64,000 bases of DNA from an uncultured Flavobacteriales bacterium (GTDB lineage: Bacteria > Bacteroidota > Bacteroidia > Flavobacteriales_G > JALEGO01): contig CAZEIM010000001.1 in assembly GCA_964512145.1 (NCBI GenBank), positions 19,094-83,093 on the forward strand, given 5' to 3'. Each line of letters opens with the position of its first letter. Position 1 is the stretch's first letter. A program made the translations under genes and the position numbers. Below, in pieces: positions 7,165-49,249 of this stretch. The notes beneath the pieces are model-generated. The model was not told the origin of the DNA. It was given only the letters and a program-made list of their open reading frames with translations, and did no database searches.

Positions 7165-9609
7165 ATGATGGAAGAAAATCCTATGAGCTTATATAACCTT
7201 TCCGATACTATAGACGAAGGAACAGAATTTATACCATTACTTTCTGTTGAAGATGAAGAGCAGTTTAATTTAGAAAATGTGCCTCAAGAATTACCTATTT
7301 TACCTTTACGGAATACCGTTTTATTTCCTGGAGTAGTAATACCTATTACAGTTGGCAGAGATAAGTCGATTAAGTTGGTAAAAGAGGCTTATCAAGGAGA
7401 TAAAACTATTGGAGTTGTTACACAAACCAACCAAAAAATAGAGGAACCGGAAGAAAAAGATTTATTTAAAATTGGTACTGTTGCTCGTATTCTTAAAATT
7501 ATTAGAATGCCCGATGGAAGTACTACTGTTATTATTCAGGGCAAGAAAAGATTTAAAATTGAGCAAATAACACAAATTGAACCATACTATAAGGCAACGA
7601 TTTCATCTTACGGTGAAGGTCAACAAAAAAATATCTCGAGTCATTTTGAGGCCTTAATTTCATCGGTTCGGGATGTTGCTGTAAGCATCATAAAACAATC
7701 CCCTCAAATACCAACAGAAGCAAATATTGCCATAAAAAATATTGAAAGTCCGGCATTTTTAATCAACTTTATTTCTTCTCATATGAATGCTCCACTGGAA
7801 GAAAAGCAAAAAATGCTTGAAACCATTGATCTTGAAAAGAGAGCAAACGCATTATTAGAGCATTTAACCAAGGAATTACAAATGTTGCAATTAAAAAACG
7901 ATATACAGGCTAAAGTAAAAACTGATATCGATCAGCAACAAAGAGAATATTTTCTCCATCAACAAATGAAAACTATTCAAGAAGAGTTGGGGGGGAATCC
8001 GGTGGATCAAGAAATTACAGAATTGCAGGAAAAAGCTTCTAAAAAGAAATGGAGTAAGGAGGTTAAAAAAGCTTTTGATAAAGAGTTGGATAAACTTTCT
8101 CGAATGAATCCTTCCGGTGCAGAGTTTTCTGTACAGGTAAATTATCTGGATACCTTGGTTGAATTACCGTGGAATGAATATACCAAAGACAACTTTGATT
8201 TAACTCGTGCCCAGAAAATTTTAGACAGAGATCATTATGGTCTTGAAAAAATTAAAGAACGCATCATGGAGCATTTAGCGGTGCTTAAACTGAAAAAAAA
8301 TATGAAATCACCTATTTTGTGTTTTTACGGCCCCCCGGGAGTTGGAAAAACATCTTTAGGACGTTCTATTGCCGAAGCTTTAGGAAGAAAATATGTCAGA
8401 ATGTCATTAGGAGGCATGCGAGATGAAGCGGAAATACGCGGACACAGAAGAACTTACATAGGCGCTATGCCCGGAAGAGTTTTACAGAACTTAAAAAAAG
8501 TAAAATCATCGAATCCGGTTTTTATTTTAGATGAAATTGATAAAATTGGTAGTGATTTTCATGGAGATCCCTCTTCGGCACTTCTTGAAGTCCTTGACCC
8601 AGAACAAAACTTTGCCTTTCACGATAATTTTGTAGAATTAGATTACGATTTATCTAAAATTATGTTTATTGCTACTGCCAATAATTTAAATACTATACAA
8701 CCCGCACTTCGCGATCGTATGGAAATTATTGAATTGACAGGGTATACCGTAGAAGAAAAAGTAAAAATCGGAACTAAACATATTATACCTAAATTATTAC
8801 AGGAACATGGATTAAAGAAAACCCATGTAGTAATACCCGAAAAAGCATTAGAATATATAGTAGAATCTCATACTATGGAATCTGGGGTTCGAGGTTTAGA
8901 AAAAAAGTTGGCCAAAGTGATACGATATGTTGCAAAAAACGTGGCCATGGATAAGGAATACGACAAAAATATTAGTAAAGAACTGGTAGATAAAATTTTG
9001 GGGCCCGGAATATCCAAAGAAAAATATGCTGGAAATGATGTAGCAGGTGTCGTTACCGGCTTAGCTTGGACAGCTGTAGGAGGGGATATTTTATTTATTG
9101 AAACCAGCTTAACTAAAGGCAAGGGAAAACTTACTCTTACCGGTAATTTAGGGGATGTAATGAAAGAATCGGCTACTATTGCTTTAGAATATTTAAAATC
9201 GCATGCATATTTGTTGGATTTAAAACAAGAAGTTTTTGACGAACACAACATTCACATACATGTACCGGAAGGTGCTACGCCAAAAGACGGTCCATCAGCA
9301 GGAATAACGATGTTAACCGCTTTAGCTTCGGCCTTTACCAAACGAAAAGTAAAAGCAAAATTAGCTATGACCGGTGAAATTACTCTTAGAGGTAATGTAT
9401 TACCAGTTGGTGGCATAAAAGAAAAAATTTTAGCCGCCAAACGTGCCGATATAAAAGAAATTATTGTATGTGCCGAAAACAAAAAAGACGTAGATGAAAT
9501 TAACCCTTCCTATATTAAAGGTTTAACTTTTCATTATGTTAAAAAAATGTCGGAAGTGTTAGATATTGCTTTAACCAAGCAAAAGGTTAAGGAAGTGGAG
9601 ATGGTTTGA
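7165..9609 (+). CDS. lon: ATP-dependent Lon protease (endopeptidase La)
   Basis: It has a Lon N-domain, Walker A GPPGVGKTS, the catalytic Ser context PKDGPSAGITM, and Lys in MTGEITLRGNVLPVGGIKEK. Confidence 0.95.
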   Translation: MMEENPMSLYNLSDTIDEGTEFIPLLSVEDEEQFNLENVPQELPILPLRNTVLFPGVVIPITVGRDKSIKLVKEAYQGDKTIGVVTQTNQKIEEPEEKDLFKIGTVARILKIIRMPDGSTTVIIQGKKRFKIEQITQIEPYYKATISSYGEGQQKNISSHFEALISSVRDVAVSIIKQSPQIPTEANIAIKNIESPAFLINFISSHMNAPLEEKQKMLETIDLEKRANALLEHLTKELQMLQLKNDIQAKVKTDIDQQQREYFLHQQMKTIQEELGGNPVDQEITELQEKASKKKWSKEVKKAFDKELDKLSRMNPSGAEFSVQVNYLDTLVELPWNEYTKDNFDLTRAQKILDRDHYGLEKIKERIMEHLAVLKLKKNMKSPILCFYGPPGVGKTSLGRSIAEALGRKYVRMSLGGMRDEAEIRGHRRTYIGAMPGRVLQNLKKVKSSNPVFILDEIDKIGSDFHGDPSSALLEVLDPEQNFAFHDNFVELDYDLSKIMFIATANNLNTIQPALRDRMEIIELTGYTVEEKVKIGTKHIIPKLLQEHGLKKTHVVIPEKALEYIVESHTMESGVRGLEKKLAKVIRYVAKNVAMDKEYDKNISKELVDKILGPGISKEKYAGNDVAGVVTGLAWTAVGGDILFIETSLTKGKGKLTLTGNLGDVMKESATIALEYLKSHAYLLDLKQEVFDEHNIHIHVPEGATPKDGPSAGITMLTALASAFTKRKVKAKLAMTGEITLRGNVLPVGGIKEKILAAKRADIKEIIVCAENKKDVDEINPSYIKGLTFHYVKKMSEVLDIALTKQKVKEVEMV

Positions 9610-9796
9610 TTTTTTAAAAATTAAAAAAAGAATGATTATACCCGTAAAGAGTAATCATATTTTATACCTTATGACTTGAGTAGACCCTCTGTTTTGATAT
9701 GAGCAATTGATTGGAATTTTAAACTATAATGTATCAAACATGAGGTGTAAAATATTTATGTAAAACCTCTTCGGGTAGTTCAGCCCCATAAATATC

Positions 9797-26685: not shown

Positions 26686-28806
26686 TTATCGAACTAATGT
26701 GACGTGTCCAGAGTGTTCATATTTCTTTTTTCCTACTGATGCATAAAGGATGTAATAATATACACCATCAACAGATTCTATGTCATTATTATTTATTCCA
26801 TTCCATTCAATATTTCCAGAGTTTTTAGAGTAAATTTCTTTCCCCCATCTATTAAAAATTTTTAATTCAAATTTTGTAAGACCTGTTGTAGGAATTAGAA
26901 ATGTATCATTAAATCCATCACCATTTGGGCTAAATATATTTGGTATAAATATGTCACAATCTTCAAATACTAAAAAAACACTTTCTTTTGCTTTACAATT
27001 AAATATATCTTTTATTTCAACCCAGTATTCTCCATTTTCGTTCGTTTCAATAAAAGGTTCAGTAGCTCCTGTGTTCCATAAATAACTAATAAACGATGAA
27101 TTTTCAGCAGAAAGAATGAAATTTTCCGGTAAACAATCTACTATATTTTTATTTAATTCAATGTTAGGCTTATTAAATCTTATAAGTATAGTATCTTTTA
27201 GCTCACAGTTATTAGAGTCATTTAATATAACCCAATATTCACCTGTTTTGTTAACAATAATAGATTTTGTTGTATCGCCATTACTCCAAATATAATAATT
27301 CGAAAAATAATTTGCGGATATTTCTAAACTTCCTTCATTCTCACAAATGGTAGTGTCATTTCCTATAAATAAATAGTTTGGATAAATAAAAATATTTATA
27401 CTGTCAGTATATTTACAACCTTTAGTTGATGTTGCCTGTAGCCAATAAGTCCCGGTTGAATTTATGATTATTGAATTAGATGTTTGCCCAGTATTCCATA
27501 AATAAGATTCAGCAACATAGTTAGGAGTAATAGAATAGGGTATTTGTGGGCATAGGATGGTATCGAGTCCTAACGTAAAATATATTGAATTACTATCTAC
27601 AAAAATACTATCGCTAATTTCACAGTTTTTATATGTAACATTTATCCAGTAATTTCCCGGTGTATTAATTAGTATACTATCGTTTACACTACCATCATTC
27701 CATAAATAACTTGACCCTAGATTACTTTCAGCTATTAAATATATTGCATTATTATTACAAATGATAGTATCATTTATTCCGCTAAAAAAATTTCCGTAAA
27801 TAGTAATTTGTTGTATTGAAGTATCTGCAATACCAGCAGTCCAAGAGTATAATGATACAGTAAATGTTCCTGTATCAGGAAAAATAAATGTAGGGTTTAA
27901 ATTCGAGCTAGTATCATAATCTATAGTAGATACTCCAAAGTCCCAAAAAACAGAATCTGGAACCGGATTAATAATAGATGAAAAAACTGTTGAGTCACCA
28001 AGACAATTATTTTCAAAAGTAAAATCGCTACCGCAATTAAAATCTTCAGCTAAACTTATTACATCTGCTGGAATTAAACTATAGGTAGTATACTGGATAT
28101 ATCTTCTTGGTGTAACTCCACTACCCTCTGGATCCCCTAAATTTGGTTCAACTGGACCTGAGTAGGTGTAACCAACAGATGAAATTGCTGCGGCAGCAGA
28201 AAAATCTGTAGCACTATGACCCATAAAAGGAGGTGTAATATGTACTAATGAAATTTCAGCATCTCTAAGTAATTTAAAGTCATTAAAAACTATAAAAGGA
28301 TTTGCAAAATCTGTAGAACTAACTAGTGCAGAACCCATAACTCCAAAAGAAGACCTTAATGCATCAGTATATATTAATATGCCTAATTTTGATGTTGGAA
28401 GTTGGTTTAAGGTATTTGTGGGACTAACTATTTCAGGGTCTGGTATACCATCTAATGCTTTACCGATTAATAACATAGATTCCGAAAGATAATCTCCCAT
28501 TCCAACCTGTGCTTGCCTATCTAAGAAATTTTTTGCGATCAAAGCATCCGATGTAAAGTCATTTTCTATATATATTCTGGGAGATAATCCTTGCATCCCA
28601 TAATGAGCTACTGCTATTCTTGTTCCTGGAACTAATAGAGCCTGATCTATAAAATCGTCTAATGATTGTTTGATAGATAACCAATTGATGGAAAGATTCA
28701 TGGACCCACTATTATCTATAAGTATTATTATGTCTCTAGGGCAATTTGCACGAATGTTAATGAATAATAATGTAGAAAAAATTAGTATATAAAATATTTT
28801 TTTCAT
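26686..28806 (-). CDS. Secreted vWA-domain adhesin-like protein with four internal repeats and a T9SS type B (gliding motility-associated) C-terminal domain
   Basis: It has a signal peptide, the MIDAS motif DNSGSM, and a PKD-like segment (NPTFIFPDTGTFTVSLY). Four ~65-aa repeats centre on Y(L/I)W(N/S)xG. The C-terminus IPNIFSPNGDGFNDTFLI...FNRWGKEIY...WNG...DGVYYYIL...GHVTLVR matches the type B CTD consensus. Confidence 0.8.
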   Translation of the reverse strand: MKKIFYILIFSTLLFINIRANCPRDIIILIDNSGSMNLSINWLSIKQSLDDFIDQALLVPGTRIAVAHYGMQGLSPRIYIENDFTSDALIAKNFLDRQAQVGMGDYLSESMLLIGKALDGIPDPEIVSPTNTLNQLPTSKLGILIYTDALRSSFGVMGSALVSSTDFANPFIVFNDFKLLRDAEISLVHITPPFMGHSATDFSAAAAISSVGYTYSGPVEPNLGDPEGSGVTPRRYIQYTTYSLIPADVISLAEDFNCGSDFTFENNCLGDSTVFSSIINPVPDSVFWDFGVSTIDYDTSSNLNPTFIFPDTGTFTVSLYSWTAGIADTSIQQITIYGNFFSGINDTIICNNNAIYLIAESNLGSSYLWNDGSVNDSILINTPGNYWINVTYKNCEISDSIFVDSNSIYFTLGLDTILCPQIPYSITPNYVAESYLWNTGQTSNSIIINSTGTYWLQATSTKGCKYTDSINIFIYPNYLFIGNDTTICENEGSLEISANYFSNYYIWSNGDTTKSIIVNKTGEYWVILNDSNNCELKDTILIRFNKPNIELNKNIVDCLPENFILSAENSSFISYLWNTGATEPFIETNENGEYWVEIKDIFNCKAKESVFLVFEDCDIFIPNIFSPNGDGFNDTFLIPTTGLTKFELKIFNRWGKEIYSKNSGNIEWNGINNNDIESVDGVYYYILYASVGKKKYEHSGHVTLVR
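26965..27780 (-). repeat. Four tandem ~65-aa protein-level repeats inside the vWA adhesin gene
   Basis: The units are anchored by YLWNDGSVNDSILINTPGNYWINVTYKNCEISDSIFV, YLWNTGQTSNSIIINSTGTYWLQATSTKGCKYTDSINI, YIWSNGDTTKSIIVNKTGEYWVILNDSNNCELKDTILI and YLWNTGATEPFIETNENGEYWVEIKDIFNCKAKESVFL. Confidence 0.65.
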
Positions 28807-33935: not shown

Positions 33936-35243
33936 ATGGTTAAAATTTATCGTTTTTGGATTACTTTCCTCTTTTTTATATTCCTTTGTTTATTCATTAT
34001 TTTTAAATTTCCCACAGTTGGTCACACATTTGATGTTTATAAGCATAAATTAATTTTTCTTAATGAAGGTAGAAGAACACCTCATTTATTTGATGCAGTA
34101 AATGCTTACAATGATTTACAAATACCTTTAATAAGGTATGTTGATTTTATAGATAGCGATTCTGTTGAAAAAAAGTTTATTTTTCCAATGGAAACTACCG
34201 GAGATGATTTAGGTATATATTTAGTAATTCCCTGGTTGTCAAAGACATTTAATATACATTATAAACAGGCATACTTATATTTTTTTATTTCAATGGTATT
34301 GCTTGGTTTTTTAATTGCTAATATAGGATTTCATTTACTAATTAATGAAAATACAAAATATTACTTTTCAGTACTAATGCTATCTATTTTAGCATTTTTT
34401 ATGTTTTATATTTTAGATGTATATGTATTTCTTTTTTTAAGTGTTTGCTTTTTACCCTTATTGATATATTTATTTCATTATAAATCCAATCAAGTTGTTG
34501 TTTATTTCTCTTTTCTTATGATTTTTATAGTTCTTGGAATATATAATCAATTTAGAGCTTACGCTTCATTTGGAGTTTTTTTATTTATGTTTTTTTATAT
34601 TATAATTACATGCTTTAAACAATCTTCTTTTTTTAAACCGTTACTTTTTGTTTTTATGATGTTAATGGGTCTAGGTTTACCTTATATTTTTAAACATCAA
34701 ATTATACAACTTAGAAATAAAACATTAATTCAGCGAGGGTATGATTCAAGGTTATTTTCTGGCTTTATGTATTCTCATATATTTTGGCATGGAATGTACT
34801 TAGGTTTAGGGTACGATAAAGAAAATAAATACGGAATTAAATGGAGCGATGTATATGGATATAATACAGTTCGAGATGAAATAAAATTAAAAAACATACA
34901 AAATATTCCAAAAATTAATGCATTAAGTATGCCTCAAAAATATGAAGAGATTATGATGAGAAAGTATATATATATATTAAAAGAAGATCCTATATTTATT
35001 TTGAAAACATATTTTAAAAAGTTACTCGATACATTGAGTAAAACATTCATTTTTTTTCATATTGGATTTTTAGGCGTATTTTATAAAAGACAAAAAGAAT
35101 ATATATTCCCCTTTATCATCATGATGTTATTTTATTCTATACCAGGGGTTTTATTTTGGCCCTATTATGCATACTTAACAGGTCTTATCTCTAGCTTTAC
35201 TATAATTGGCAGCTTGTTATTTGTAAAGACAAGAAATTATTAA
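33936..35243 (+). CDS. Polytopic membrane protein of unknown function (435 aa)
   Basis: It has about 10 hydrophobic segments. A long first loop carries acidic residues (…FPMETTGDDLGIY…). I recognise no motif. Confidence 0.6.
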   Translation: MVKIYRFWITFLFFIFLCLFIIFKFPTVGHTFDVYKHKLIFLNEGRRTPHLFDAVNAYNDLQIPLIRYVDFIDSDSVEKKFIFPMETTGDDLGIYLVIPWLSKTFNIHYKQAYLYFFISMVLLGFLIANIGFHLLINENTKYYFSVLMLSILAFFMFYILDVYVFLFLSVCFLPLLIYLFHYKSNQVVVYFSFLMIFIVLGIYNQFRAYASFGVFLFMFFYIIITCFKQSSFFKPLLFVFMMLMGLGLPYIFKHQIIQLRNKTLIQRGYDSRLFSGFMYSHIFWHGMYLGLGYDKENKYGIKWSDVYGYNTVRDEIKLKNIQNIPKINALSMPQKYEEIMMRKYIYILKEDPIFILKTYFKKLLDTLSKTFIFFHIGFLGVFYKRQKEYIFPFIIMMLFYSIPGVLFWPYYAYLTGLISSFTIIGSLLFVKTRNY

Positions 35244-35252
35244 AATAATTTC

Positions 35253-36230
35253 TTAAAAAACTAACACTTCTTCCTTATTTTGAAGAATAATCTCAATCTC
35301 CTGCATTATATCATTTGTTAACGAGGGTAAGTATTTTAAACTTTCTATATTGTCTTGTAATTGTTCCATTTTTGATGCCCCTAAAATAGCGGTACTAACA
35401 TGGCTGTTTTTTAAACACCAAGCTAAAGCTAATTTATTTAAAGGAACTCCTATTTTTTTAGAGAATTCTTCTAGTTTAATTACTTTTTGAATGTTGGTTT
35501 CAGTTAAATTTTTTTCTTTTAACCAATCAAAACCATCTAAACCTAATCTAGTGTCCTTAGGAAATTTTTTGTTATATTTTCCTGTTAATATTCCAGATGC
35601 TAAAGGAGACCAAATAGTACTACCATACGAATAATCTTTAAATAATCTATGATATTCAACTTCAAATCTTCTTCTGTGTAACATATTGTACTGAGGTTGT
35701 TCCATAACCGGGGCAATTAGGTGGTATTTATTAGCAATCCCTATGGCATCGGTTATTTCTTGTGCACTCCATTCGGATGTTCCCCAATACAATATTTTCC
35801 CTTGCATAATGAGTTGATGCATAGTCCAAACTGTTTCTTCAATAGGGGTGTTTACATCAGGCCGATGACAAAAATACAAATCTAAATACTCTACTTGAAG
35901 TCTTTTTAGAGCTGCATGACAGGCTTCTACAACATGTTTTCGAGATAATCCTTTTTGTGTAGGTTTATCTCCTCCCCAAAATACTTTGCTAGAAACGATA
36001 TAACTATCTCTGGACCAACCCATTTTTTTTAAAATTTCTCCCATCACAATTTCTGATTGTCCTTTGGCATATATTTCGGCATTATCAAAAAAGTTTATTC
36101 CCTGATCATATGCATATTTCATTAAGGATTCAGCAACACTATTGTCAATTTGTTTTCCGAAAGTAATCCAAGAACCAAGAGATAATGCGCTTACTTGTAA
36201 TCCAGAACTTCCTAACCTCCTGTATTCCAT
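35253..36230 (-). CDS. Aldo/keto reductase (Kv-beta-like subfamily)
   Basis: It contains [43 protein letters not shown] and QPQYNML, covering the AKR catalytic tetrad context. Its ATG shares one nucleotide with the stop of the upstream collagen-like gene (TAATG). Confidence 0.85.
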   Translation of the reverse strand: MEYRRLGSSGLQVSALSLGSWITFGKQIDNSVAESLMKYAYDQGINFFDNAEIYAKGQSEIVMGEILKKMGWSRDSYIVSSKVFWGGDKPTQKGLSRKHVVEACHAALKRLQVEYLDLYFCHRPDVNTPIEETVWTMHQLIMQGKILYWGTSEWSAQEITDAIGIANKYHLIAPVMEQPQYNMLHRRRFEVEYHRLFKDYSYGSTIWSPLASGILTGKYNKKFPKDTRLGLDGFDWLKEKNLTETNIQKVIKLEEFSKKIGVPLNKLALAWCLKNSHVSTAILGASKMEQLQDNIESLKYLPSLTNDIMQEIEIILQNKEEVLVF

Positions 36231-39019
36231 TAATTTATTTTTTTAATTCTAATATTTGCTGATACGTGTACACTTGTTCCAAAAAATCCGACAGATTTTA
36301 ATGAGATATTAGTAGCAGCTGCAACATTAGCAACAAAACTTGCAACAGTATTAATATTATCTCCATTGGTAGCTTGAATTGAACGCAAAAGAATGGTTTG
36401 TGATCCAGGAAATGCAGTTCCTGTATTTTCATTCCACCATTGTAATTGTACCCAGTCATTTGTAGAACCCATTCCCCCATTAATATATGCCTCAGCATGC
36501 AATTCATAAACTCCTGGCTGTAGAGTATAAATATCGGTTGCAGAATTATATGTGATATCTGTTCCATTTACATAATAACTTAATGCATCTGTTTTTTGTA
36601 GTGTGGCAGTAAAATTTTGAAAAGAAGAGTATCCTGCCCAAATATTTAATGTAGGAGTAGCGTTAGTCCAACTTAAGGTTCCATTTCCATCTGTTTTTAA
36701 AATTTGATTAGCACTCCCATCAATTGTAGGGAATTTATATCCTGTAGTACTAGGGTCATTTATTTGAAATTCACCATTAATCCTCAATTTATCTGTTAAA
36801 AAGTCCCCCCAAATTAAAGGAGTTGAAGAATTTGAGTTTTCAATAAATAGTTTATTACTACCAGTCGCTTGTTCACCCGCTCTATAACCTATAAATATAT
36901 TTGCGCTATCATTATTTTGTAGGCTATACCCAGTATTATTCCCTATTAATACATTAAATGAATTACTACTACCTGGGTTTATCAGGTTTCCTGATCGATG
37001 TCCAATTACTGTGTTATTACTACCAGTTTGGTTAAACTGAAGGCTAGTTGTACCCAAAATAATATTACTATTTCCACTCACCAGTTCGTATCCTGCATCA
37101 GTGCCAATTGATATGTTATTCCCGGCTGAAGAATTATTTGTTATACTGAATAATGATCTAGATCCTATCGCTATATTTGAATGAGGTCCTGTAGCAACAG
37201 CATTTAAACTTCTTAACGCCCAATATCCAATTCCAATATTACCTCCTGACGCAGCAGTTACAGGAACATTAGCACCGGCTTCGTGCCCTACAAAAACATT
37301 TGTATTTGCACCTCTTCTGTGCATAAATCTACCTCCAGATATTTTAAAATAATCTGCAGCATTATTTAAATCTATACTACCTTCCACGTCTAATTTATCT
37401 GAAGGATTAATAAGCCCAATTCCAATGTTCCCTCCGTCTGGCTGAAATGAAATATGTCTTTTTGTTCCAGCATCATCTAACTCCATACTAGCATATCTAT
37501 TAGTGGCTGTTGCGTCTGTTTTTAAACCAAATTGTAGTCTTAATGGATTAGCCGCATCGTTACTAGCAATAGAAACAATGTTTTGTAGTACAGCTGTTGT
37601 TGCTTTGGCATTAGTTCCTCTAATATCTAATTTTAAATTTGGATTATTTGTTCCAATACCTACATTTCCCGAAGTTTTATAAATATTATCTGTAATTGCA
37701 TCAGGAGGAATAGATGTTCCTACTTCAAACCAGTCTGCATCAGATCCTGATGCTCCCGTAGGACCAGTAGGTCCGGTTGCTCCGTTAGCACCAACACTTC
37801 CTGTTAATCCAGTAGGACCTGTAGCACCAGTGGTTCCTGCGCCTGTTGGCCCAGTAGGTCCGGTTGCACCGTTACTACCGGCAATACCAGTTACACCCGT
37901 AGGTCCAGTAGCGCCAGTAGTTCCAGCTCCTGTTGGTCCAGTAGGTCCTGTTGCTCCGTTATTACCCGCAATACCAGTAACACCCGTAGGTCCAGTTGCA
38001 CCAGTAGTTCCAACTCCCGTAGGACCAGTAGGTCCGGTTGCTCCGTTAGCACCAGCACTTCCTGTTAATCCTGTAGGACCTGTAGCACCAGTGGTTCCTG
38101 CGCCTGTTGGCCCAGTAGGTCCGGTTGCACCGTTACTACCGGCAATACCAGTTACACCCGTAGGTCCAGTAGCGCCAGTAGTTCCAGCTCCTGTTGGTCC
38201 AGTAGGTCCTGTTGCTCCGTTATTACCCGCAATACCAGTAACTCCCGTAGGTCCGGTTGCACCAGTAGTTCCAGCTCCTGTTGGCCCCGTAGGTCCAGTT
38301 GCACCATTATTTCCGGCAATACCGCTTACCCCAGTAGGCCCAGTTGCTCCAGTTGCTCCAGTTGCTCCAGTAGGTCCTGTTGCTCCGTTATTACCCGCAA
38401 TACCAGTAACTCCCGTAGGTCCGGTTGCACCAGTAGTTCCAGCTCCTGTTGGCCCAGTAGGTCCAGTTGCTCCATTATTTCCGGCAATACCAGTAACTCC
38501 CGTAGGTCCAGTAGCACCAGTAGTTCCAGCTCCTGTTGGCCCAGTAGGTCCAGTTGCTCCATTATTTCCGGCAATACCAGTAACTCCCGTAGGTCCAGTA
38601 GCACCAGTAGTTCCAACTCCTGTAGGCCCCGTAGGTCCAACACTTCCTGTTAATCCAGTAGGTCCCGTTGCTCCGTTAACACCACTAACACCAGTAGGTC
38701 CCGTAGGTCCGGTAATACCAGTAGCACCCGTTACTCCAATAATTCCTGTGCTTACATTGGTAGCAAAAATTTTTCTCCATATAATTCCATCCCAGTATCT
38801 AATGGTACTGTCAGGGGTATGAAATATAATTAAACCATACGCGTGAGGAAAAATTACGTTATTTGTATCTGATATTCTAGGAATTAGTAAACCTTTGTCG
38901 GTACTTAATATTTCAAGACTAGATGAATTATGAGGGCTATTGGTTCCTATCCCTACATTGTCTTGGGTAAATAGGTTTGTGAACAATATTATGAATAGTA
39001 AAACAATGTAAATTTTCAC
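36230..39019 (-). CDS. Collagen-like triple-helix-repeat surface fibre protein 1 (929 aa)
   Basis: It starts with GTG and a signal peptide ending ...LFTQ. Residues 20-91 form a conserved N-module, and residues 92-424 form a Gly-X-Thr collagen-like region. The motif VGIGTxxP..L(D/E) occurs three times. Tandem NxxIGxxA/S beta-roll-like repeats follow, then [26 protein letters not shown], then a ~140-aa C-terminal globular domain. Confidence 0.8.
37748..38746 (-). repeat. GC-rich collagen-like tandem array, core period 87 bp (29 aa), about 10 units
   Basis: The string TACCAGTAAC... recurs at 38401, 38488 and 38575, a spacing of 87 nt. At the protein level there are nine 29-aa units, [29 protein letters not shown], and one 27-aa unit. 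Confidence 0.85.
38615..38962 (-). repeat. Copy A of a ~345-bp near-identical direct repeat (N-module plus start of collagen region of fibre gene 1)
   Basis: By eye it aligns with 39990-40337 with only scattered substitutions. The encoded ~115 aa differ at 3 positions (NSP/NTP, VSG/ISG, VNG/ANG). Confidence 0.8.
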
Positions 39020-39083
39020 AATAATTTGAATTTAATACTAATGTAGTTATTAATTCTTTTTAATACAATATTTTAATAATAAT

Positions 39084-40394
39084 TTAAGGTGTTGTTGAAA
39101 ATTTAATCAAACAATACGCTCCGGTTGGAGTTGACCCAGTAAATTCATGTGTTCCTAATCTTATCCTATCACCCCTAAAAACCTGTCTACTGTAAATACA
39201 AGTTGATTCAAGTTCATTTTCTATAAAATTACAACTTGCTAAATTTACTCCACCTCCTGAAGCTTTTTGAATATTAATATTCATTCTTAAAATTCCGTCA
39301 GATGCAGTAAATACACCAAAACTTACAGTTGTAATATACCAACCATCCATACTTGCTGGTACCACTATATAATCACTAGAATATATTGTAAATGCTATTT
39401 GATTCGTAGTTGCTGGTATTGGAGCTATATCTAAATATCTTTCATTCAACCCTCCAGTAGGCCCGGTTGGTCCAACACTTCCTGTTAATCCAGTAGGTCC
39501 TGTTGCTCCGTTAGCACCACTAACACCTGTAGGTCCTGTAGGTCCAGTAGCGCCAGTAGTACCTGCGCCTGTTGGTCCCGTAGGTCCAATACTTCCTGCT
39601 AATCCAGTAGGTCCCGTTGCTCCGTTAGCACCACTAACACCTGTAGGTCCTGTAGGTCCAGTCGCCCCATTATTACCAGCAACACCAGTAGGTCCAGTAG
39701 GTCCAATACTTCCTGCTAATCCAGTAGATCCCGTTGCTCCGTTAGCACCACTAACACCTGTTGGTCCTGTAGGTCCAGTAACCCCATTATTACCAGTAGC
39801 ACCCGTAGGTCCTGTTGCACCAGTAGTTCCAACTCCTGTTGGCCCCGTAGGTCCAGCACTTCCTGCTAATCCAGTAGGTCCCATTGCTCCAGTAGTTCCA
39901 GCTCCTGTAGGTCCCGTAGGTCCTGTTGCACCGTTATTACCGGTAATACCAGTAACACCCGTAGGTCCTGTAGCACCAGTAGTTCCAACTCCTGTTGGCC
40001 CCGTAGGTCCAACACTTCCTGTTAATCCAGTAGGTCCCGTTGCTCCGTTAGCACCACTAATACCAGTAGGTCCCGTAGGTCCTGTAATACCAGTAGCACC
40101 CGTTACTCCAATAATTCCTGTGCTTACATTGGTAGCAAAAATTTTTCTCCATATAATTCCATCCCAGTATCTAATGGTACTGTCAGGGGTATGAAATATA
40201 ATTAAACCATACGCGTGAGGAAAAATTACGTTATTTGTATCTGATATTCTTGGTATGAGTAAACCTTTATCGGTACTTAATATTTCAAGACTAGATGAAT
40301 TATGGGGGGTATTAGTTCCTATTCCTACATTGTCTTGTGCAAGGAAATAAAATGATTTAAGAAAAAGTAAGAATAAGCCTATGTAATTTTTCAT
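39084..40394 (-). CDS. Collagen-like triple-helix-repeat surface fibre protein 2 (436 aa from ATG 40394)
   Basis: The ATG at 40394 gives the signal peptide [20 protein letters not shown]. The N-module is the same as in fibre 1. A ~223-aa Gly-X-Thr region follows, then an unrelated ~120-aa beta-rich C-terminal domain ([14 protein letters not shown]...[10 protein letters not shown]). The track TTG start at 40406 is less likely. Confidence 0.8.
39450..40118 (-). repeat. Collagen-like Gly-X-Thr triplet repeat region of fibre gene 2 (less regular than in gene 1)
   Basis: Translation gives [40 protein letters not shown]... through ...[10 protein letters not shown]. The region is markedly more GC-rich than its surroundings. 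Confidence 0.8.
39990..40337 (-). repeat. Copy B of the ~345-bp near-identical direct repeat (N-module of fibre gene 2)
   Basis: See copy A. The two copies are offset by ~1375 bp in direct orientation. Confidence 0.8.
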
Positions 40395-40451
40395 ATCCCT
40401 AAACAAAAAACTATTTATTCTTTGTTACGTATAGATTAAAAATATGTTACG

Positions 40452-41675
40452 TTAGCTAACAAATCCTTCTAAGTTTAATGTTTCTTTTGAGATGTTTTTT
40501 AAGGAAAATAATTTTAAAATAATTTCCTCTAAAATACTATCAGGACAAGAAGCTCCACTTGTTATGATGATTTTTTGAAAAGTGTTTCTAGATAATTCAA
40601 ATTTGGAATGTTTAATTTCGTTTGTGTGTATATTAAAATTGGCTATTTCTCCATTCGTTTTAATATCATCAGCAGATGAAATAAAAAAGGTTTTAAATTT
40701 ACTTTCGCAAAGTTCGACTAAATGTGATGTATTTGAGCTATTATACCCCCCAACCACCAGCGCATAATCCACATGTTTTTCTTTTAATAACTCTAAGGTA
40801 GAATCTTGATTGTCATTTGTTGCATAACACAAAGTGTCTCTTGTATCAGCAAAGTGTTCTGAAATATTTTCTATGCCAAATTTTTGTATTAAAGTATTTT
40901 TAATTAGTTCAGAAATTTCGTGAGTTTCTGAGGCAAGCATTGTTGTTTGATTAATAACTCCAACTTTATTTAAATGAATATTTGGGATAAAATTATTCGA
41001 GTATTTACCCTTAAATATTTGATTAAATTCATGAAGTGAAATTTTTTCTAAAATATATAAGCACAGTATTTTTGCTTCTTCTATATTTTTTACAATTATG
41101 GAAGGAGCATTTTGATTGGCGTGTGAAAATGTAGCTCTTGTTTCTTCATGGTTATGTTTTCCGTGTATAACAATAGAAAAATTTTTCTCACCAATTTTTT
41201 GAGATGTTTTCCAAACTTTTTCTACAAACGGACATGTTGTGTTATATGTTTTAATATCTACTTCTTTTTCTTTTAAAAGATTTTCTATTTCAAGCGTTGT
41301 GCCAAATGCAGGAATAATTACCACATCGTTTTTACTGATTTTATCCCATGATATTATATTATTTCCTTCAGTATCTAATATAAAATCAATTCCATTGCTA
41401 TTTAAATCTGCGTTTACATGAGGATTATGAATCATTTGACTCAGTAAATAAATTTTTTTTCCTTTATTTTCTTGAACAGCTTTATATGAAATTTCAATAG
41501 CATTTTCTACACCATAACAAAACCCAAAATGTCGGGCAAGAACAATTTCTAATGATTCAAAATTTAATCGTGTAGGCGAAAAATCTTTTTTTTTAGGGTC
41601 GTTAATTTTTCTGTACTGCTTAATTTTTTTTATTATATTGCTCTGATAAGCTTCTGGAATATCAAATTTTTTCAT
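40452..41675 (-). CDS. ispH: 4-hydroxy-3-methylbut-2-enyl diphosphate reductase, long (~407 aa) form
   Basis: The three cluster Cys lie in HFGFCYGV, NTTCPFV and SGASCPD. It also has HGKHNHEET and VVGGYNSSNTSHL. The ATG at 41675 (MKKFDIPEAY) is preferred over the track GTG at 41702. Confidence 0.85.
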   Translation of the reverse strand: MKKFDIPEAYQSNIIKKIKQYRKINDPKKKDFSPTRLNFESLEIVLARHFGFCYGVENAIEISYKAVQENKGKKIYLLSQMIHNPHVNADLNSNGIDFILDTEGNNIISWDKISKNDVVIIPAFGTTLEIENLLKEKEVDIKTYNTTCPFVEKVWKTSQKIGEKNFSIVIHGKHNHEETRATFSHANQNAPSIIVKNIEEAKILCLYILEKISLHEFNQIFKGKYSNNFIPNIHLNKVGVINQTTMLASETHEISELIKNTLIQKFGIENISEHFADTRDTLCYATNDNQDSTLELLKEKHVDYALVVGGYNSSNTSHLVELCESKFKTFFISSADDIKTNGEIANFNIHTNEIKHSKFELSRNTFQKIIITSGASCPDSILEEIILKLFSLKNISKETLNLEGFVS

Positions 41676-41687
41676 TTTTTTGTTGGT

Positions 41688-43433
41688 ATGATAAAAACAC
41701 ACATATTGTTCTCATTAAGATACATTATTACTATGGGGTGTTTTTTGTTATTTTACAGTAACAAAGTTAAGGCACAAAAAATATATCCCAAAGGAATTTT
41801 TAAATCTCCGGTAGACTCTACTGTATTACTGGCTGGAAATTTTGCTGAACTTAGGCCAAATCATTTTCATGGCGGCTTAGATATTAAAACACAGGGTCAA
41901 GAAGGAAAAAATATATACAGTATTTACGATGGTTATGTTTCAAGAATTAAAATATCAACACGAGGTTATGGAAAGGTGCTTTATATTACTCATCCTAATG
42001 GATATGTTAGTGTGTATGCACATTTGAGTAAATTCTCAGAAAAGATTGAAAAATATATTAAAAAGTTTCAATATGAAAAACAGACTTTCGAAATTGAATT
42101 GTTTCCTGATAAGTTAGATTTAGTTATAAAAACGAGTGAATTAATTGCTTACTCAGGAAATACTGGAGGTTCTAGTGCTCCACATTTACATTTTGAAATC
42201 AGAAATGTGGATGAAAAAACAATTAATCCTTTACTATTTGATTTTGGAGTGCAAGATAACATTAATCCTTCTATTTATAACTTGGGTATTTTTCCAAAAG
42301 GAAATCAAAGTTTTGTAAATGGTAAAACTGAAAAAATAATTCTTAGGTGTACAGGTAAAGATGGGAAATACAATATTAAAAATTATAAGCCTATTACAGC
42401 ATGGGGAGAAATAGGTTTTGGGGTATCATGTTTAGACTTTTTTACCAATTCGGGTAATCGGTTTGGGATTTATAAAATGGAAATGTACGTGGATTCAGTA
42501 TTGGTGTTTAAAAGTCAATTAGATGAGGTAGCTTTTGATGAAACTAGATATATTAACTCATTTGTTGATTATGAAATTTGGAAAAAATCGGGTATGAAAA
42601 TTCAAAAAGCATATGTTGATCCTGGGAATAAATTGAATGTTTATTCAAATTTAGAGAATAAGGGTATTGTTTCTGTTCATGAAGAGAGAACCTATAAAGT
42701 TAAAATAATCACAACGGATTATCATAGTAATACATCAGAATTAGAGTTTGAGGTTATCGGAAAAAAACAAATACAAGAAATTTCTGCTTCTAGTAGTAAA
42801 AGTCAGAATATTACAACAAAGTTTTTTCATTATGATATCCACAATTCTTATCAAAATGACGAATGTATTGTTACGATTCCTGAAGGGAGGTTATATGAAG
42901 ATATTTTATTCGAATATTCTTCTTCAAAAAATGTATCTAAAAACTTTTATTCAAATATTCATCATATTCACAATACTTATACTCCATTACACAAACCTAT
43001 AACTTTAGTTATTAAATTAACACGAGAAGCTCAAGATAATAGCAAACTTTTTGTTGCATCTATAGAAGGAGATAGGTATACTTATGAAGGTGGTAAGGTA
43101 GAAAATGGATATATAACTGCTCAATTAAAAAATTTTGGCTCGTATGCCGTGTTGTCTGATACTATTGCGCCATATATCGGAGTTTTAAAATTACCTAATT
43201 CAAAAAACAAAAATATTTCATTTAAAATTTCTGACAATTTATCAGGAATTTCAAATTATAAATTAATGATTTCAAATTATTGGTTGTTAGCTGAATATGA
43301 ATATAAGAATCATACTTTAACATATACACCGGATGAATATTTTCCTAAAATAAAAGGTCAGCAAGATTTAATATTAGAAGTAACCGATAAACTTGGTAAC
43401 AAAAGAGTATATAAAACGAAAGTTATTTTATAA
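41688..43433 (+). CDS. Secreted M23 family metallopeptidase with a large C-terminal extension
   Basis: It has a signal peptide ending KVKAQ, and the LytM-type motifs HFHGGLDI (HxxxD) and SSAPHLHFEI (HxH). Confidence 0.8.
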   Translation: MIKTHILFSLRYIITMGCFLLFYSNKVKAQKIYPKGIFKSPVDSTVLLAGNFAELRPNHFHGGLDIKTQGQEGKNIYSIYDGYVSRIKISTRGYGKVLYITHPNGYVSVYAHLSKFSEKIEKYIKKFQYEKQTFEIELFPDKLDLVIKTSELIAYSGNTGGSSAPHLHFEIRNVDEKTINPLLFDFGVQDNINPSIYNLGIFPKGNQSFVNGKTEKIILRCTGKDGKYNIKNYKPITAWGEIGFGVSCLDFFTNSGNRFGIYKMEMYVDSVLVFKSQLDEVAFDETRYINSFVDYEIWKKSGMKIQKAYVDPGNKLNVYSNLENKGIVSVHEERTYKVKIITTDYHSNTSELEFEVIGKKQIQEISASSSKSQNITTKFFHYDIHNSYQNDECIVTIPEGRLYEDILFEYSSSKNVSKNFYSNIHHIHNTYTPLHKPITLVIKLTREAQDNSKLFVASIEGDRYTYEGGKVENGYITAQLKNFGSYAVLSDTIAPYIGVLKLPNSKNKNISFKISDNLSGISNYKLMISNYWLLAEYEYKNHTLTYTPDEYFPKIKGQQDLILEVTDKLGNKRVYKTKVIL

Positions 43434-46166: not shown

Positions 46167-46937
46167 ATGAAAAAAAATAATATGGAAAAAAAGCAAAATA
46201 ATTTAGTTAGAAATTTATTAATAGTGAGTAATGTGGTGTTCTTTTTACTTTTTTTAAGAGGTTGTTTGTTTACACCAAAATGTCCGGATACTGTTGTTCA
46301 GAATAATGTGGCTGAAGAAATTTCGGAGAAAAATAACACCCATGAAATCGTAAGTAATGATACCGTTGAAAAGTCAGAAATCAATGAAGTAGCAGAGGAA
46401 CCACAAAATAATTCCGTGATAATAAATGAAGAACCCACATTATCAACAATAAAACAAGAGCCTGTATCAACCGAAGAAAAAAAAGAAAATGAAATATGGG
46501 AAAAAGCTAAGAAGAATAAAACACTGTATTCTTATAATGAGTATTTAAAAAAATTCCCCAATGGTAAACATAAAGACGAAGCAGAGAAGGCAATAGTAGA
46601 TTATGAAGTAAACGATATTTTTAATAAAGACTATAAAAGTTTACCCCCAATGGATTACAAAACCCCAAAGGGTGGAGTTAATAAGTCGACTAGTTTAGTA
46701 GAAGTTAAAAATGATACCGATTTTGATTTAATTATTCGTTACAGTGGACCTCAAAGTTATAAGGTTACTTTAAAATCTCAAGAAAAGAAAACATTTACAT
46801 TAGCCAATGGAGATTACAAAATGACTGCAACGGTGAATGCAGAACATGTTAAAAACTATGGAAGTTTTGAGAAATTACAAGGTATGAATTACTACAGTGA
46901 GTTTTATTTAAAAAGTAAAGAAGTACCTAATCCTTAA
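46167..46937 (+). CDS. Hypothetical membrane-anchored protein (acidic linker plus C-terminal beta domain)
   Basis: It has an N-terminal TM segment (LLIVSNVVFFLLFL), an E/N-rich linker, and a WEKAKKNKTLYSYNEYLKKFPNGKHKDEAEKAI helix-hairpin motif. The function is unknown. Confidence 0.5.
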   Translation: MKKNNMEKKQNNLVRNLLIVSNVVFFLLFLRGCLFTPKCPDTVVQNNVAEEISEKNNTHEIVSNDTVEKSEINEVAEEPQNNSVIINEEPTLSTIKQEPVSTEEKKENEIWEKAKKNKTLYSYNEYLKKFPNGKHKDEAEKAIVDYEVNDIFNKDYKSLPPMDYKTPKGGVNKSTSLVEVKNDTDFDLIIRYSGPQSYKVTLKSQEKKTFTLANGDYKMTATVNAEHVKNYGSFEKLQGMNYYSEFYLKSKEVPNP

Positions 46938-49249
46938 AAAGTCCAGTTAAATCCAACGGTTGGGAGTAGAGGCAATTGATCTACTCGTTCGTAGTTAATT
47001 CTGTCGAAGTAAAATATGTTATTTCTATTATACAAATTAGTTGCACCAATATTTACTTCTAATTCAGAAAAATCTCCGAAGTAAAACTTTTTAGAAATGT
47101 TTATGTCAAAACGATGATAATCAGGTAATCTTCCTGCATTTAAATCTCCATAATAAATTCCTAATTCGCCATTTGAAGATGTATAATTAGTATTTATACC
47201 ATCACTAAATGTAAATTGTTCGTAAAAGCCTTGAGTTTGAGTGAAAGGTAACCCAGAACCATAATTCCATCGAACGCTTAATTCCCAATTTAAGTCTTTA
47301 CCAAATTTATAATTACCCACTAAATTTATATTATGTCGTCTATCGAAAATAGGAGGATAGGTGTTTATACCATCAAACCTGTTTGATTTCATCCAAGAAT
47401 ATACAGCCCAAAGATAGGCTCTTTTAAACTCGTATTTTAGAACAAGATCAACCCCATAAGCATCTCCGGTTTCTATAATAAAGTCTTTCCGTAAAATTTG
47501 AGGTCGGAATGAATTTTCAGCGTTATCTTCAAATATTTTGTTTCGATTTATATTTGATAATTGATTAAACCATTTGTAATACCCTTCAACATTTAAATTT
47601 ATGCGTGAAGTAACATCTATTTCTATTCCACCAATGGCGTGAGTGGCTTTTTGAAGTTCGTGGTTTCGAGCACGCACTGTGCCATTTTTATAATAAATAC
47701 TATCTTGTAAACTTTCGGGACCTGATAAAAATCCGTTAAAAATATTTACAACATCTCTTTCTGAATTAGCACTGATTAAATTTTGAGAATATATTCCTCC
47801 TGCAGCTTTTAAACGCATATTATTTGTTACGTTATATTTAATTCCTATTCGAGGTTCGGGTGAAAATGTGTTTAGTGATGCGTAATATTGTATTCTCATC
47901 CCTGGATCTAAAATTAGATTACCTAAGGTAATTTTATATTTTAAAAATCCAGATAATTCAGTAGTAAAAGCTTCTTGAGAAATGGTTCGGTTAAAATCGT
48001 TTACAAATTTAAAATTGGTTGAAAATCCAAGGAGTTGAAATCCATATTTTAATTCATTTTTTCCCTGAAATGAAGTGAAATTCATATCAAAATTAAATCC
48101 GTCAATAGCACTAAAGCGCTCTCCTTTATTTGCCTCAAGTAAGGTAATGTCGTATTGAGAATAAGAAAAGCTTCCATCTATTAATGTAGCAGAAGCCTCT
48201 GGTATAAGCACGAAATTTGAACCAATGCCCCAAGTTTTCCAGTTTAAATCAGAAATTGCTTTCCAAGTAACCTGATCGTTAAAGTTAAAGCCAAAGAGGT
48301 TAAATTTACTACCGTTACTTCCATTGAATGAAATTTTTCCGTACACATCGGTAAAACTAAAGGGTATCCCTGAGCTGTCAACATACGGATAAAATACTTT
48401 TGAAGACTGATCGAGATACGATTTTTTTCCGGTTAATATAAAGGAAGATGAGCCTTTACTTTCATCGGTTACTTTTTTTAGAGGGCCTTCTAATATCACT
48501 TTTGAGCCAAATGTGTTTGCGCCAACTTTTCCTCCAAAACGTTTTTTGTTTCCATCGCGAGTAGTGATATCCATAACCGATGAAATTCTACCTCCGTATT
48601 GAGCATTAAATCCTCCGGTATATACATCTGCATTTCTCATGATATCGGTTTCAAATACAGAAAAAAGCCCAATAGTATGAAAAGGGTTGTAAATAATCAT
48701 GCCATCTAATAAAACTTTGTTCTGTATAGGTGCCCCACCTCTAATGTATAGTTGCCCTCCTTGATCACCGGTAAACACAACCCCAGGTAAAACCTGAAGA
48801 TATTGCGCAATATCCGCTTCACCTCCTATCGTAGGTAATTGCTTTATTTCTTTAGGAGTAATCTTGGTAACACTCATTTGAACTTGTGTTTTATTCTCTT
48901 CTTTTTCTGCTGAAACCTGAACTTCTTGTAATTGAACCGATGCTTGTTTTACATATAACTTTACGCTTTCAATTTGATCTTTTTTTACTGTAACACTTTT
49001 TTGAAGTGTATCATATCCAAGTCCGGATACTACAATAGTGTAAGTGCCCGCAGGCACTCTTGAAATGGTGAAAAAGCCATTTACATCGGTGGCTGCTCCT
49101 AAAGAAGTCCCTTTCAAAAATACGTTGGTAAAAATAATTGGCTCTCCTGTTTTTTCTTCGTAAATAAATCCCCTAATGGTTCCATTTCCTGTTTGCGAAA
49201 ATAAATACGAGCTCGAGAATAAAAATAAAAGTATTACTAACTGTCTCAT
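46934..49249 (-). CDS. TonB-dependent receptor with N-terminal carboxypeptidase-regulatory-like domain
   Basis: The signal peptide ends LFSQ. It has a CarbopepD_reg-like segment (GTIRGFIYEEKTGEPI...GTYTIVVSGLGYD), plug-like GGEADIAQYLQVLPGV, and a long beta-barrel ending in NWTF. Confidence 0.85.
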   Translation of the reverse strand: MRQLVILLFLFSSSYLFSQTGNGTIRGFIYEEKTGEPIIFTNVFLKGTSLGAATDVNGFFTISRVPAGTYTIVVSGLGYDTLQKSVTVKKDQIESVKLYVKQASVQLQEVQVSAEKEENKTQVQMSVTKITPKEIKQLPTIGGEADIAQYLQVLPGVVFTGDQGGQLYIRGGAPIQNKVLLDGMIIYNPFHTIGLFSVFETDIMRNADVYTGGFNAQYGGRISSVMDITTRDGNKKRFGGKVGANTFGSKVILEGPLKKVTDESKGSSSFILTGKKSYLDQSSKVFYPYVDSSGIPFSFTDVYGKISFNGSNGSKFNLFGFNFNDQVTWKAISDLNWKTWGIGSNFVLIPEASATLIDGSFSYSQYDITLLEANKGERFSAIDGFNFDMNFTSFQGKNELKYGFQLLGFSTNFKFVNDFNRTISQEAFTTELSGFLKYKITLGNLILDPGMRIQYYASLNTFSPEPRIGIKYNVTNNMRLKAAGGIYSQNLISANSERDVVNIFNGFLSGPESLQDSIYYKNGTVRARNHELQKATHAIGGIEIDVTSRINLNVEGYYKWFNQLSNINRNKIFEDNAENSFRPQILRKDFIIETGDAYGVDLVLKYEFKRAYLWAVYSWMKSNRFDGINTYPPIFDRRHNINLVGNYKFGKDLNWELSVRWNYGSGLPFTQTQGFYEQFTFSDGINTNYTSSNGELGIYYGDLNAGRLPDYHRFDINISKKFYFGDFSELEVNIGATNLYNRNNIFYFDRINYERVDQLPLLPTVGFNWTF

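Follow-up and report, generated by a model that had tools for sequence, protein, structure and literature searches.

Tandem collagen-like genes of a Flavobacteriales bacterium encode putative secreted fibers whose N-terminal module resembles the end of phage tail fibers

The window analyzed here is a 64,000-nucleotide stretch of DNA from an uncultured Flavobacteriales bacterium (assembly GCA_964512145.1, contig CAZEIM010000001.1), and the subject of this study is a pair of collagen-like genes within it, which we call A and B. According to the list of open reading frames (ORFs) of the window, gene A occupies positions 36230 to 39019 of the minus strand and encodes 929 amino acids (aa) from a GTG start, and gene B occupies positions 39084 to 40406 of the minus strand and encodes 440 aa as listed from a TTG start. 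An original prediction had placed two adjacent same-strand ORFs at these positions, and both are there. The likelier start of B is the ATG at position 40394 (M5), because the residues MKNYIGLF align with MKIYIVLL of A; the GTG start of A aligns with this ATG. The order on the minus strand is ispH, B, A, and an aldo/keto reductase gene. The stop codon of A and the ATG of the reductase share one base (TAATG junction), the remaining intergenic gaps are 57 to 64 bp, and the four genes give the appearance of a single compact block on one strand. The predicted identity of the two flanking genes is confirmed by Pfam, and ATP synthase gamma and an M23 peptidase are encoded further out in the neighborhood. 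The features of the pair and its flanks are as follows.

40338-40394 (-): signal peptide of B, from M5 to the predicted cleavage before Gln24; hydrophobic leader with an AQ-DNVGIGT junction
40119-40337 (-): N-terminal module of B (PF26696-type), aa 24-96; profile E value 7.6e-28
39447-40118 (-): collagen-like region of B, aa 97-320; 72 triplets, 4 G-X-G interruptions
39087-39446 (-): C-terminal head of B, aa 321-440; predicted with low confidence (pLDDT < 50 for most)
38966-39019 (-): signal peptide of A, aa 1-18, GTG start
38747-38965 (-): N-terminal module of A (PF26696-type), aa 19-91; profile E value 1.5e-29
37739-38746 (-): collagen-like region of A, aa 92-427; 106 triplets, 9 G-X-G interruptions
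37280-37738 (-): linker of A with two NVGIGT..P...LDV shaft motifs, aa 428-580; partial match to the N-terminal module profile at aa ~450-470
36653-37279 (-): beta-repeat stalk, PLIWGDF cap, and neck of A, aa 581-789; 606 homologs, peak coverage at aa ~600-760
36233-36652 (-): terminal head of A, aa ~790-929; pLDDT 31-59
40452-41702 (-): ispH (LytB), upstream flank; Pfam LYTB, E value 3.6e-68
35253-36230 (-): aldo/keto reductase, downstream flank; Pfam Aldo_ket_red, E value 1.1e-67

Both proteins carry the signal peptides that had been predicted, with hydrophobic leaders that end in TQ or AQ, and both continue with a shared N-terminal module (N-module), also predicted, of ~73 aa. The module is near-identical in A and B at the DNA level (223 of 231 nucleotides, 96.5%), and seven of the eight differences are synonymous. 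The hidden Markov model (HMM) behind the E values listed above was trained on A, B, and 24 relatives. Aligned relatives share the consensus VGIGT..P..SA.LD..S..KG.LIPRMT..QR..I..P..GL.VY.T....F..Y.G..W over ~65 to 70 aa. In the AlphaFold2 (AF2) monomer models, the module consists of small beta elements with a predicted local distance difference test (pLDDT) score of 55 to 91. Neither its sequence nor its profile found anything significant in PDB. Matches to WD40, WW, and ErbB4 structures, which were obtained with the N-module, the C-terminal domains, and the module profile at E values of 0.01 to 2, were judged to be chance. A Foldseek match of the module to the trimerization domain of collagen XV/XVIII (E value ~3, TMt 0.5 to 0.6) is a lead only.

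The module is followed by the Gly-X-Thr stalks, which had been estimated at ~330 and ~220 aa and measure 336 aa in A and 224 aa in B. The Pfam Collagen family (PF01391; cut-off, 27.2 bits) matches A with an E value of 5.5e-37 (125.8 bits) and B with an E value of 1.3e-28 (99 bits). In A, Thr occupies the Y position in 79 of 106 triplets and Pro the X position in 34, with GPT (34) and GAT (24) as the commonest triplets; the corresponding counts for B are 49 of 72 and 26, with GPT (26) and GAT (11) leading. Charged residues are nearly missing from these regions (one in A, zero in B). The interruptions are triplets short by one residue (G-A-G or G-V-G), and those of A are mostly 29 residues apart, which matches an 87-bp tandem repeat in the DNA (10.3 copies, with a 261-bp super-period). 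The collagen DNA of B contains tandem repeats of 117 and 156 bp. If fully helical, the rods would be ~96 nm (A) and ~64 nm (B) long; the AF2 monomer models render the collagen segment as low-confidence coil. Two further listed ORFs, 37830-38822 (+) (330 aa) and 38326-38643 (-), overlap the collagen region of A in antisense and in an alternative frame. These are frame shadows of the collagen repeat (PVGPVAP..., LLDLRELL...) and not genes.

Beyond the collagen, the C termini of A and B differ as proposed and are unrelated (BLASTP E value, 0.23). The C-terminal region of A (500 aa), which had been taken for an unrecognized globular domain, is mostly a phage-like repeat stalk: aa ~581 to 789 comprise N..IG..AG units of ~17 residues, a SNKLFI.NS...PLIWGDF cap, and a Q.L.TDG.G.L.W neck. 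Homologs of this C-terminal region number 606 database proteins, of which 122 were retrieved, and their source names include "tail fiber domain-containing," "beta strand repeat-containing," and "trimeric autotransporter adhesin." The stalk matches tail spike and virion structural families of PHROG (E values, 5.5e-9 and 7.7e-9), and a 1,780-aa phage protein encoded at locus L163 strongly matches the same families. The AF2 model of A reaches a pLDDT of 80 to 93 for most of aa ~613 to 793, and this repeat stalk and part of the N-module are the only confident portions of the monomer models. A profile of the homologs matches the T5 tail fiber and MYRF in their self-cleaving trimer chaperone domain, via C termini that are absent from A.

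The description as unrecognized heads stands for the last ~130 to 140 aa of A and for the ~120-aa head of B, which have no family match. No homolog alignment extends past aa ~870 of A, and this end has no match in Pfam, NCBIfam, or PDB. Head B has no match in Pfam, NCBIfam, PDB, or the word-indexed database, and a search of 1.84 billion representative proteins returned three matches, two of them convincing. In one of the three (P0124), the N-module is joined straight to a domain like head B, without intervening collagen, so the collagen behaves as an inserted spacer between two modules. Whole-protein matches of A and B to Lcl, Scl, and dozens of PHROG tail-fiber families were driven by the collagen and were rejected as evidence of membership; the non-collagen parts were rescanned separately. 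The proposed layout of stalk plus head holds, and homologs or collagen-bearing relatives carry Peptidase_S74, C1q, Lcl_C, or other heads.

The collagen DNA is conspicuously GC-rich, as had been noticed (0.53 to 0.55, compared to 0.31 for the whole window). By codon position, its GC content is 0.61 to 0.62 at the first (GC1), 0.84 to 0.86 at the second (GC2), and 0.13 to 0.155 at the third (GC3). The last value is lower than the background GC3 of 0.212 ± 0.026 in 38 other genes of the window, and the non-collagen parts of A and B have a GC3 of 0.12 to 0.26. Since the rise is limited to codon positions 1 and 2, the peak reflects Gly, Pro, Ala, and Thr codons in native AT-biased usage and not foreign DNA. 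Nothing marks the pair as a recent insertion, although it had been described as inserted among housekeeping genes: its GC3 is native, and the stop codon of A overlaps the start of the reductase. Among species-representative genomes, ispH finds its closest relatives in Crocinitomicaceae and other Bacteroidota, at ~60% identity; there is no close genome among the 80 ispH-relative loci, and neither the reductase nor the fiber genes lie nearby in any of them.

These observations also bear on whether the two genes are functional. It is extremely improbable that A and B are decaying or unexpressed repeat-rich ORFs without current function. A scan for sigma-70 promoters and terminators stayed at chance level and gave no convincing promoter, which would suit decay, with a sigma-70 model that is ill-suited to Bacteroidota. 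The frames of 929 and 440 aa, however, stay open in DNA of 31% GC, the N-module differences are nearly all synonymous, GC3 remains low along both genes, translation of A is coupled to that of the reductase, and the family is conserved. The length of the frames in such AT-rich DNA, together with the existence of relatives for both proteins, indicates that the ORFs are not chance.

The N-module had been reported as belonging to no named family. It corresponds instead to proteins annotated with PF26696, which are common in Bacteroidota, and it occurs C-terminally in phage tail fibers; the PF26696 assignment comes from the precomputed annotation of homologs and not from a direct match to the PF26696 model. 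A word-indexed search with the module alone returned two short proteins (P0001 and P0002), both annotated PF26696, and the module is present in 42 of the 122 retrieved homologs of the A C-terminal region, usually from residue ~20 and largely in those annotated PF26696. A metagenome scan produced 79 loci, which together with 15 viral (IMG/VR) loci make up 94 related loci. A hydrophobic leader precedes the module in all 68 complete relatives that have it N-terminally, and Gln stands directly before the module in 65 of them, so the module is the very start of the mature protein. Signal peptidase I substrates of Bacteroidota prefer Gln at the +1 position, which fits this count. No paper on Bacteroidota proteins sharing the N-module was found in a literature search.

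The architecture of A and B recurs in this family. In ~22 of the 79 metagenome loci, the module starts at aa ~20 and substantial G-X-Y collagen follows directly from aa ~86, as in the window. The triplets of these relatives are mostly G-P-Q, and G-X-T occurs in few (L094, L108, L119, and L159). Their C termini include Lcl_C (in L114), Fib_succ_major, pentapeptide repeats, Peptidase_S74 (in L159), and heads of ~110 to 150 aa without assignment. Two or three module-bearing ORFs lie side by side on one strand in 21 of the 94 loci, and the tandem-pair layout is typical of the family. None of the 94 loci encodes a relative of head A or head B.

Two further features were seen in these relatives. Three collagen proteins (L106:7947-9659, L140:2925-4022, and L157:1955-3196) contain the module twice, after the signal peptide and near the C terminus, and both ends of such fibers would be capped alike. 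The modules of the four G-X-T relatives named above have two conserved Cys residues (...NFDC.YY......W.S.C), both of which are lacking in the window copies; this pair suggests a disulfide and hence an oxidizing, non-cytoplasmic location for those proteins.

In phages, the module is found at the opposite end of the protein. In the 15 IMG/VR loci and in cultured phages, it forms the last ~65 residues of long proteins, mostly without a hydrophobic leader. An HMM built only from bacterial modules matches the phage proteins with E values of 1e-15 to 1e-32, and the module ends 1 to 3 residues before the C terminus in 15 of the 17 matched proteins. Two carriers, both matching tail-fiber PHROGs, lie in genuine phage genomes, one with large terminase, portal, and tail sheath genes (L166) and one with a major head protein gene (L163). 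Cultured carriers are PSSM2_034 of Prochlorococcus phage P-SSM2 (a "tail protein" whose gene adjoins a tail fiber gene), gp257 of Leptolyngbya phage Lbo-JY46, proteins of several Synechococcus myophages, and a "baseplate wedge subunit" of Methylophilales phage Melnitz. The window N-module itself found no match in cultured phages by tblastn, and the phage link rests on a phage-type consensus or HMM. The Foldseek comparison that the original prediction had suggested gave a divided answer: with the AF2 models there was no PDB match below an E value of 0.4, and in BFVD there were short module-phage matches of low root mean square deviation (rmsd) (e.g., 51 columns, rmsd 1.8, TMt 0.80). The top BFVD matches reflected collagen composition (rmsd > 30 Å) and were ignored. 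Judged by these profile matches, the module at the mature N terminus in Bacteroidota and the module at the C terminus of phage tail fibers are homologous.

Along phage fiber shafts (L173:3942-8198, 1,419 aa; L163 and L172), the initial ~20 residues of the module (VGIGT..P...L.V) return every ~80 to 95 residues. The full module stands only at the C-terminal end of these shafts, which suggests that it is a modified last shaft repeat. The VGIGT shaft motif occurs twice in A beyond the collagen, at aa ~450 and ~530.

The module and the beta-repeats of A are both common in phage tail-fiber and virion proteins, and A and B could accordingly be read as tail or baseplate fibers of a prophage, tailocin, or contractile injection system that are assembled in the cytoplasm. 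Fibers of Bacteroidota contractile injection systems bear C1q or S74 heads, and collagen shafts are present in some of them (PMC12923769), which counts for this reading. So does a homolog (P0114) in which Pfam annotation places an Hcp (type VI secretion tube) domain next to or together with the PF26696 module, either as a fusion or as a gene-calling merge. We nevertheless regard cytoplasmic assembly as very unlikely. Signal peptides are present in A, in B, and in every one of the 68 relatives whose module is N-terminal, whereas a hydrophobic leader is missing from most of the phage carriers examined; the module is C-terminal in phages and N-terminal in A and B; the genes around the pair are ispH, the reductase, ATP synthase gamma, and the M23 peptidase; and no sheath or baseplate family recurs beside the metagenomic relatives.

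Collectively, the domain anatomy, the homologies, the recurrent architecture, and the native codon usage lead us to interpret A and B as paralogous Sec-exported proteins that are most likely trimeric fibers, a reading to which we assign a probability of roughly 60% and which draws on sequence and predicted monomers. Trimerization is inferred because collagen needs three chains and because related stalks belong to trimeric phage fibers, with the match of the homolog profile to the trimer chaperone domain pointing the same way, and export beyond the periplasm, surface attachment, and a binding function would complete this picture. The signal peptide would be cleaved so that Gln heads the mature chain. 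The terminal module of ~70 aa probably caps the fiber end, sets three chains in register, and starts the triple helix, and it may also dock the fiber to the cell envelope. The collagen rod would serve as an uncharged (Gly-Pro/Ala-Thr)n spacer with regular one-residue deletions, whose length the 87-bp DNA repeats would make easy to change. The distal part differs between the paralogs and should set the binding target, with a beta-repeat stalk and a head of ~135 aa in A and a head of ~120 aa in B. The pair probably arose when the 5′ ~640 bp underwent duplication or gene conversion and became joined to different 3′ ends; the same pattern of shared 5′ and different 3′ parts is seen as tandem arrays in other Bacteroidota.

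Several points weigh against this interpretation. The AF2 monomer models are poor (mean pLDDT, 60.5 and 49.1), and Foldseek found nothing significant for them in PDB. Pfam and NCBIfam searches found no type IX secretion system (T9SS) C-terminal domain, lipoprotein Cys, LPXTG motif, or autotransporter barrel in A or B, and with no known sorting or anchor signal, the route across the outer membrane is not indicated. Neither head has a family match, so that a binding role is without direct support in A and B themselves. Further, the module occurs in phages of unrelated hosts (cyanobacteria and Methylophilales), which favors a structural cap over specific binding to a receptor or to the envelope.

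The location of the fibers can be considered in the light of the secretion genes in the window and in the relatives. The window encodes TamL (2606-4972, minus strand), a SusC/RagA-like N-terminal region (46934-49249, minus strand), and a 706-aa protein whose sorting domain is of T9SS type B (TIGR04131; 26686-28806, minus strand). Together with PolA, Lon, and GdhA, these indicate an ordinary T9SS-bearing Bacteroidota chromosome, and the relatives of ispH likewise assign the organism to this phylum. In one marine lineage (L084, L091, L106, L113, L114, L128, and L154), an ORF of ~235 aa is located immediately upstream and shares a few bases with the module-collagen gene. Its product has a signal peptide and, at the C terminus, a T9SS type-A-like domain (...VYPNPTTDYL...TFKIIKK), for example at L106:7238-7942 with the fiber gene at 7947-9659. 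This protein could be a surface anchor or export partner of the fiber; it has no homolog in the 64-kb window.

Surface exposure of A and B is plausible, given the length of the rods and the adhesin-type heads of relatives. We consider it unlikely that the proteins are instead periplasmic or envelope-internal spacers or tethers between membranes. Such a role would agree with the Sec signal standing alone, with no recognizable outer membrane export or anchoring signal, in an organism that has T9SS cargo with a proper sorting domain (26686-28806), which A and B lack. The periplasm, however, is roughly 25 to 30 nm wide, and rods of ~64 and ~96 nm far exceed this width. The relatives with Lcl_C or C1q heads, as well as the translational coupling to the small T9SS protein in the marine lineage, also point outside.

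The composition of the rods allows a different kind of surface role. A and B might form a protective or decoy nap, that is, dense phage-fiber-like and possibly glycosylated Thr-rich rods that keep phages or grazers off or mimic phage fibers. The homology shared with phage tail fibers, from which parts of the proteins would derive, is in line with this, as are the fast turnover of heads and the length-variable repeats. The uncharged Gly-Pro-Thr composition resembles that of BclA, a protein that makes up the exosporium nap and carries glycans on its Thr residues. Adhesins, however, would be expected to have variable heads just as much, and general family scans found no defense-gene context nearby (no PADLOC scan was made); we hold a nap of this kind to be rather improbable.

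A broader evolutionary scenario would combine these elements. Bacteroidota might have domesticated a phage tail-fiber end-cap as the N-terminal foot of secreted, surface-held fibers without a known sorting signal, of which A and B would represent the Gly-Pro-Thr "nap" type, with heads specific to the lineage; they would build a surface layer not seen before, which could serve adhesion or the exclusion of phages or grazers. This scenario is speculative, and its chance of being right appears small. Conceivable routes to the surface under it are riding on or docking to a small T9SS-exported partner, or binding of the module to an envelope component.

The surroundings of the block show a few further details. 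Between the ispH gene as listed (GTG, position 41702, minus strand) and the M23 peptidase gene, which starts divergently at position 41688 (plus strand), there is an overlap of 15 bp (41688-41702); relatives of ispH align from residue ~10 on, so the true start is probably a downstream ATG (MKKFD...). Just beyond the reductase, a gene on the opposite strand (33936-35243, plus strand) encodes a multi-pass membrane protein of 435 aa, for which Pfam gave no match. An exact look-up found no identical product on record for B or the reductase, and scanning the window with Rfam and for tRNAs returned nothing.

Collagen-stalk fibers have been well studied in Firmicutes (BclA and Scl) and Legionella (Lcl). 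The module described here is abundant in environmental Bacteroidota and aquatic phages and links a family of secreted fibers to the tips of phage tail fibers. For this family, the question arises of how a long trimeric fiber with only a Sec signal leaves a Bacteroidota cell and remains attached to it. An uncharged Gly-Pro-Thr helix with periodic G-X-G breaks also offers a clean natural test of triple-helix stability without hydroxyproline or charge pairs. For annotation, a defined modular architecture can replace the label "hypothetical collagen-like protein."

Among characterized systems, we regard Lcl as the best working analog of A and B and BclA as the closest in collagen chemistry, while A and B are members of neither family. 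BclA (and ExsJ/BclB) has a (Gly-Pro-Thr)n-rich, near-uncharged collagen with variable repeats, a C-terminal head of ~130 aa, and an N-terminal domain that fixes the fiber. A and B resemble it in their Gly-X-Thr collagen with GPT as the commonest triplet. Neither head matches BclA_C or C1q in sequence even at an E value of ≤10, and the AF2 models of the heads, with pLDDT mostly < 50, show no confident fold. A and B differ from BclA in having a Sec signal peptide and an unrelated N-module where BclA has an exosporium-targeting N terminus, in the periodic G-X-G breaks of their collagen, and in their host, a member of the Bacteroidota and not a spore former. At least one homolog of A (P0081) carries PF18573, which we take to be BclA_C. 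Scl1 and Scl2 (NF038329 and NF038330) score A and B at 72 to 124 bits against cut-offs of 325 and 400, and the C termini of A and B contain no LPXTG motif.

Legionella Lcl consists of a signal peptide, an N-terminal trimerizing and surface-binding region, a collagen stalk, and a trimeric glycosaminoglycan-binding head, and it appears as a "lollipop" in electron microscopy (PMC11162425). The likeness to A and B lies in the Gram-negative host, the collagen stalk of variable repeat number, and the short N-terminal region, which in Lcl trimerizes and holds the protein on the cell (PMC11162425). The Lcl family model (NF046116) scores A at 124.7 bits and B at 113.4 bits against a cut-off of 500, through the collagen region only, and no Lcl_C domain (DUF1566, PF07603) is found in A or B at an E value of ≤10. 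The N terminus of A and B is a beta-rich module of ~70 aa, whereas that of Lcl is a 30-residue amphipathic helix; the G-P/A-T repeats of A and B are uncharged, whereas the Lcl repeat is charged (GPQGLPGPKGDKGEA); and Lcl is exported by type II secretion.

Like the fibers proposed for A and B, trimeric autotransporters of the YadA type are trimeric fiber adhesins with a similar-looking repeat motif; two homologs are annotated with the YadA head repeat PF05658, and the name "trimeric autotransporter adhesin" is given to several by JGI. Pfam, which detects only Collagen in A and B, finds no YadA head, stalk, or C-terminal membrane anchor in them, and their orientation is the reverse, with the conserved end at the N terminus. 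T9SS cargo is distinguished by its sorting domains: neither TIGR04183 nor TIGR04131 is found in the C-terminal domains of A and B at an E value of ≤10, with the same library that detects TIGR04131 at 26686-28806. Phage tail-fiber proteins share the homologous module of ~65 aa, the VGIGT shaft motif, and tail-spike-type repeats, but they are encoded among virion genes, and the carriers examined have no collagen.

Other relatives are found within the Bacteroidota themselves. The uncharacterized "tail fiber domain-containing" or "beta strand repeat-containing" proteins with the PF26696-type N-module share with A the N-module, the VGIGT motifs, the stalk of ~17-residue repeats, the cap, and the neck. 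They differ in that none of the 122 retrieved homologs of the A C-terminal region has a collagen segment (one has a single run of five triplets) and in that many end in Peptidase_S74 (PF13884) or C1q, whereas A (like B) lacks PF13884. The collagen-bearing metagenomic relatives place the collagen directly after the module, as A and B do, but theirs is mostly G-P-Q, and the heads of A and B are absent from them. What is new in the window is a Gly-Pro-Thr collagen version of an uncharacterized Bacteroidota fiber family, in which the helix is broken at regular intervals and both heads are near-orphans, and the N-module of this family is, by sequence comparison, the terminal module of phage tail fibers.

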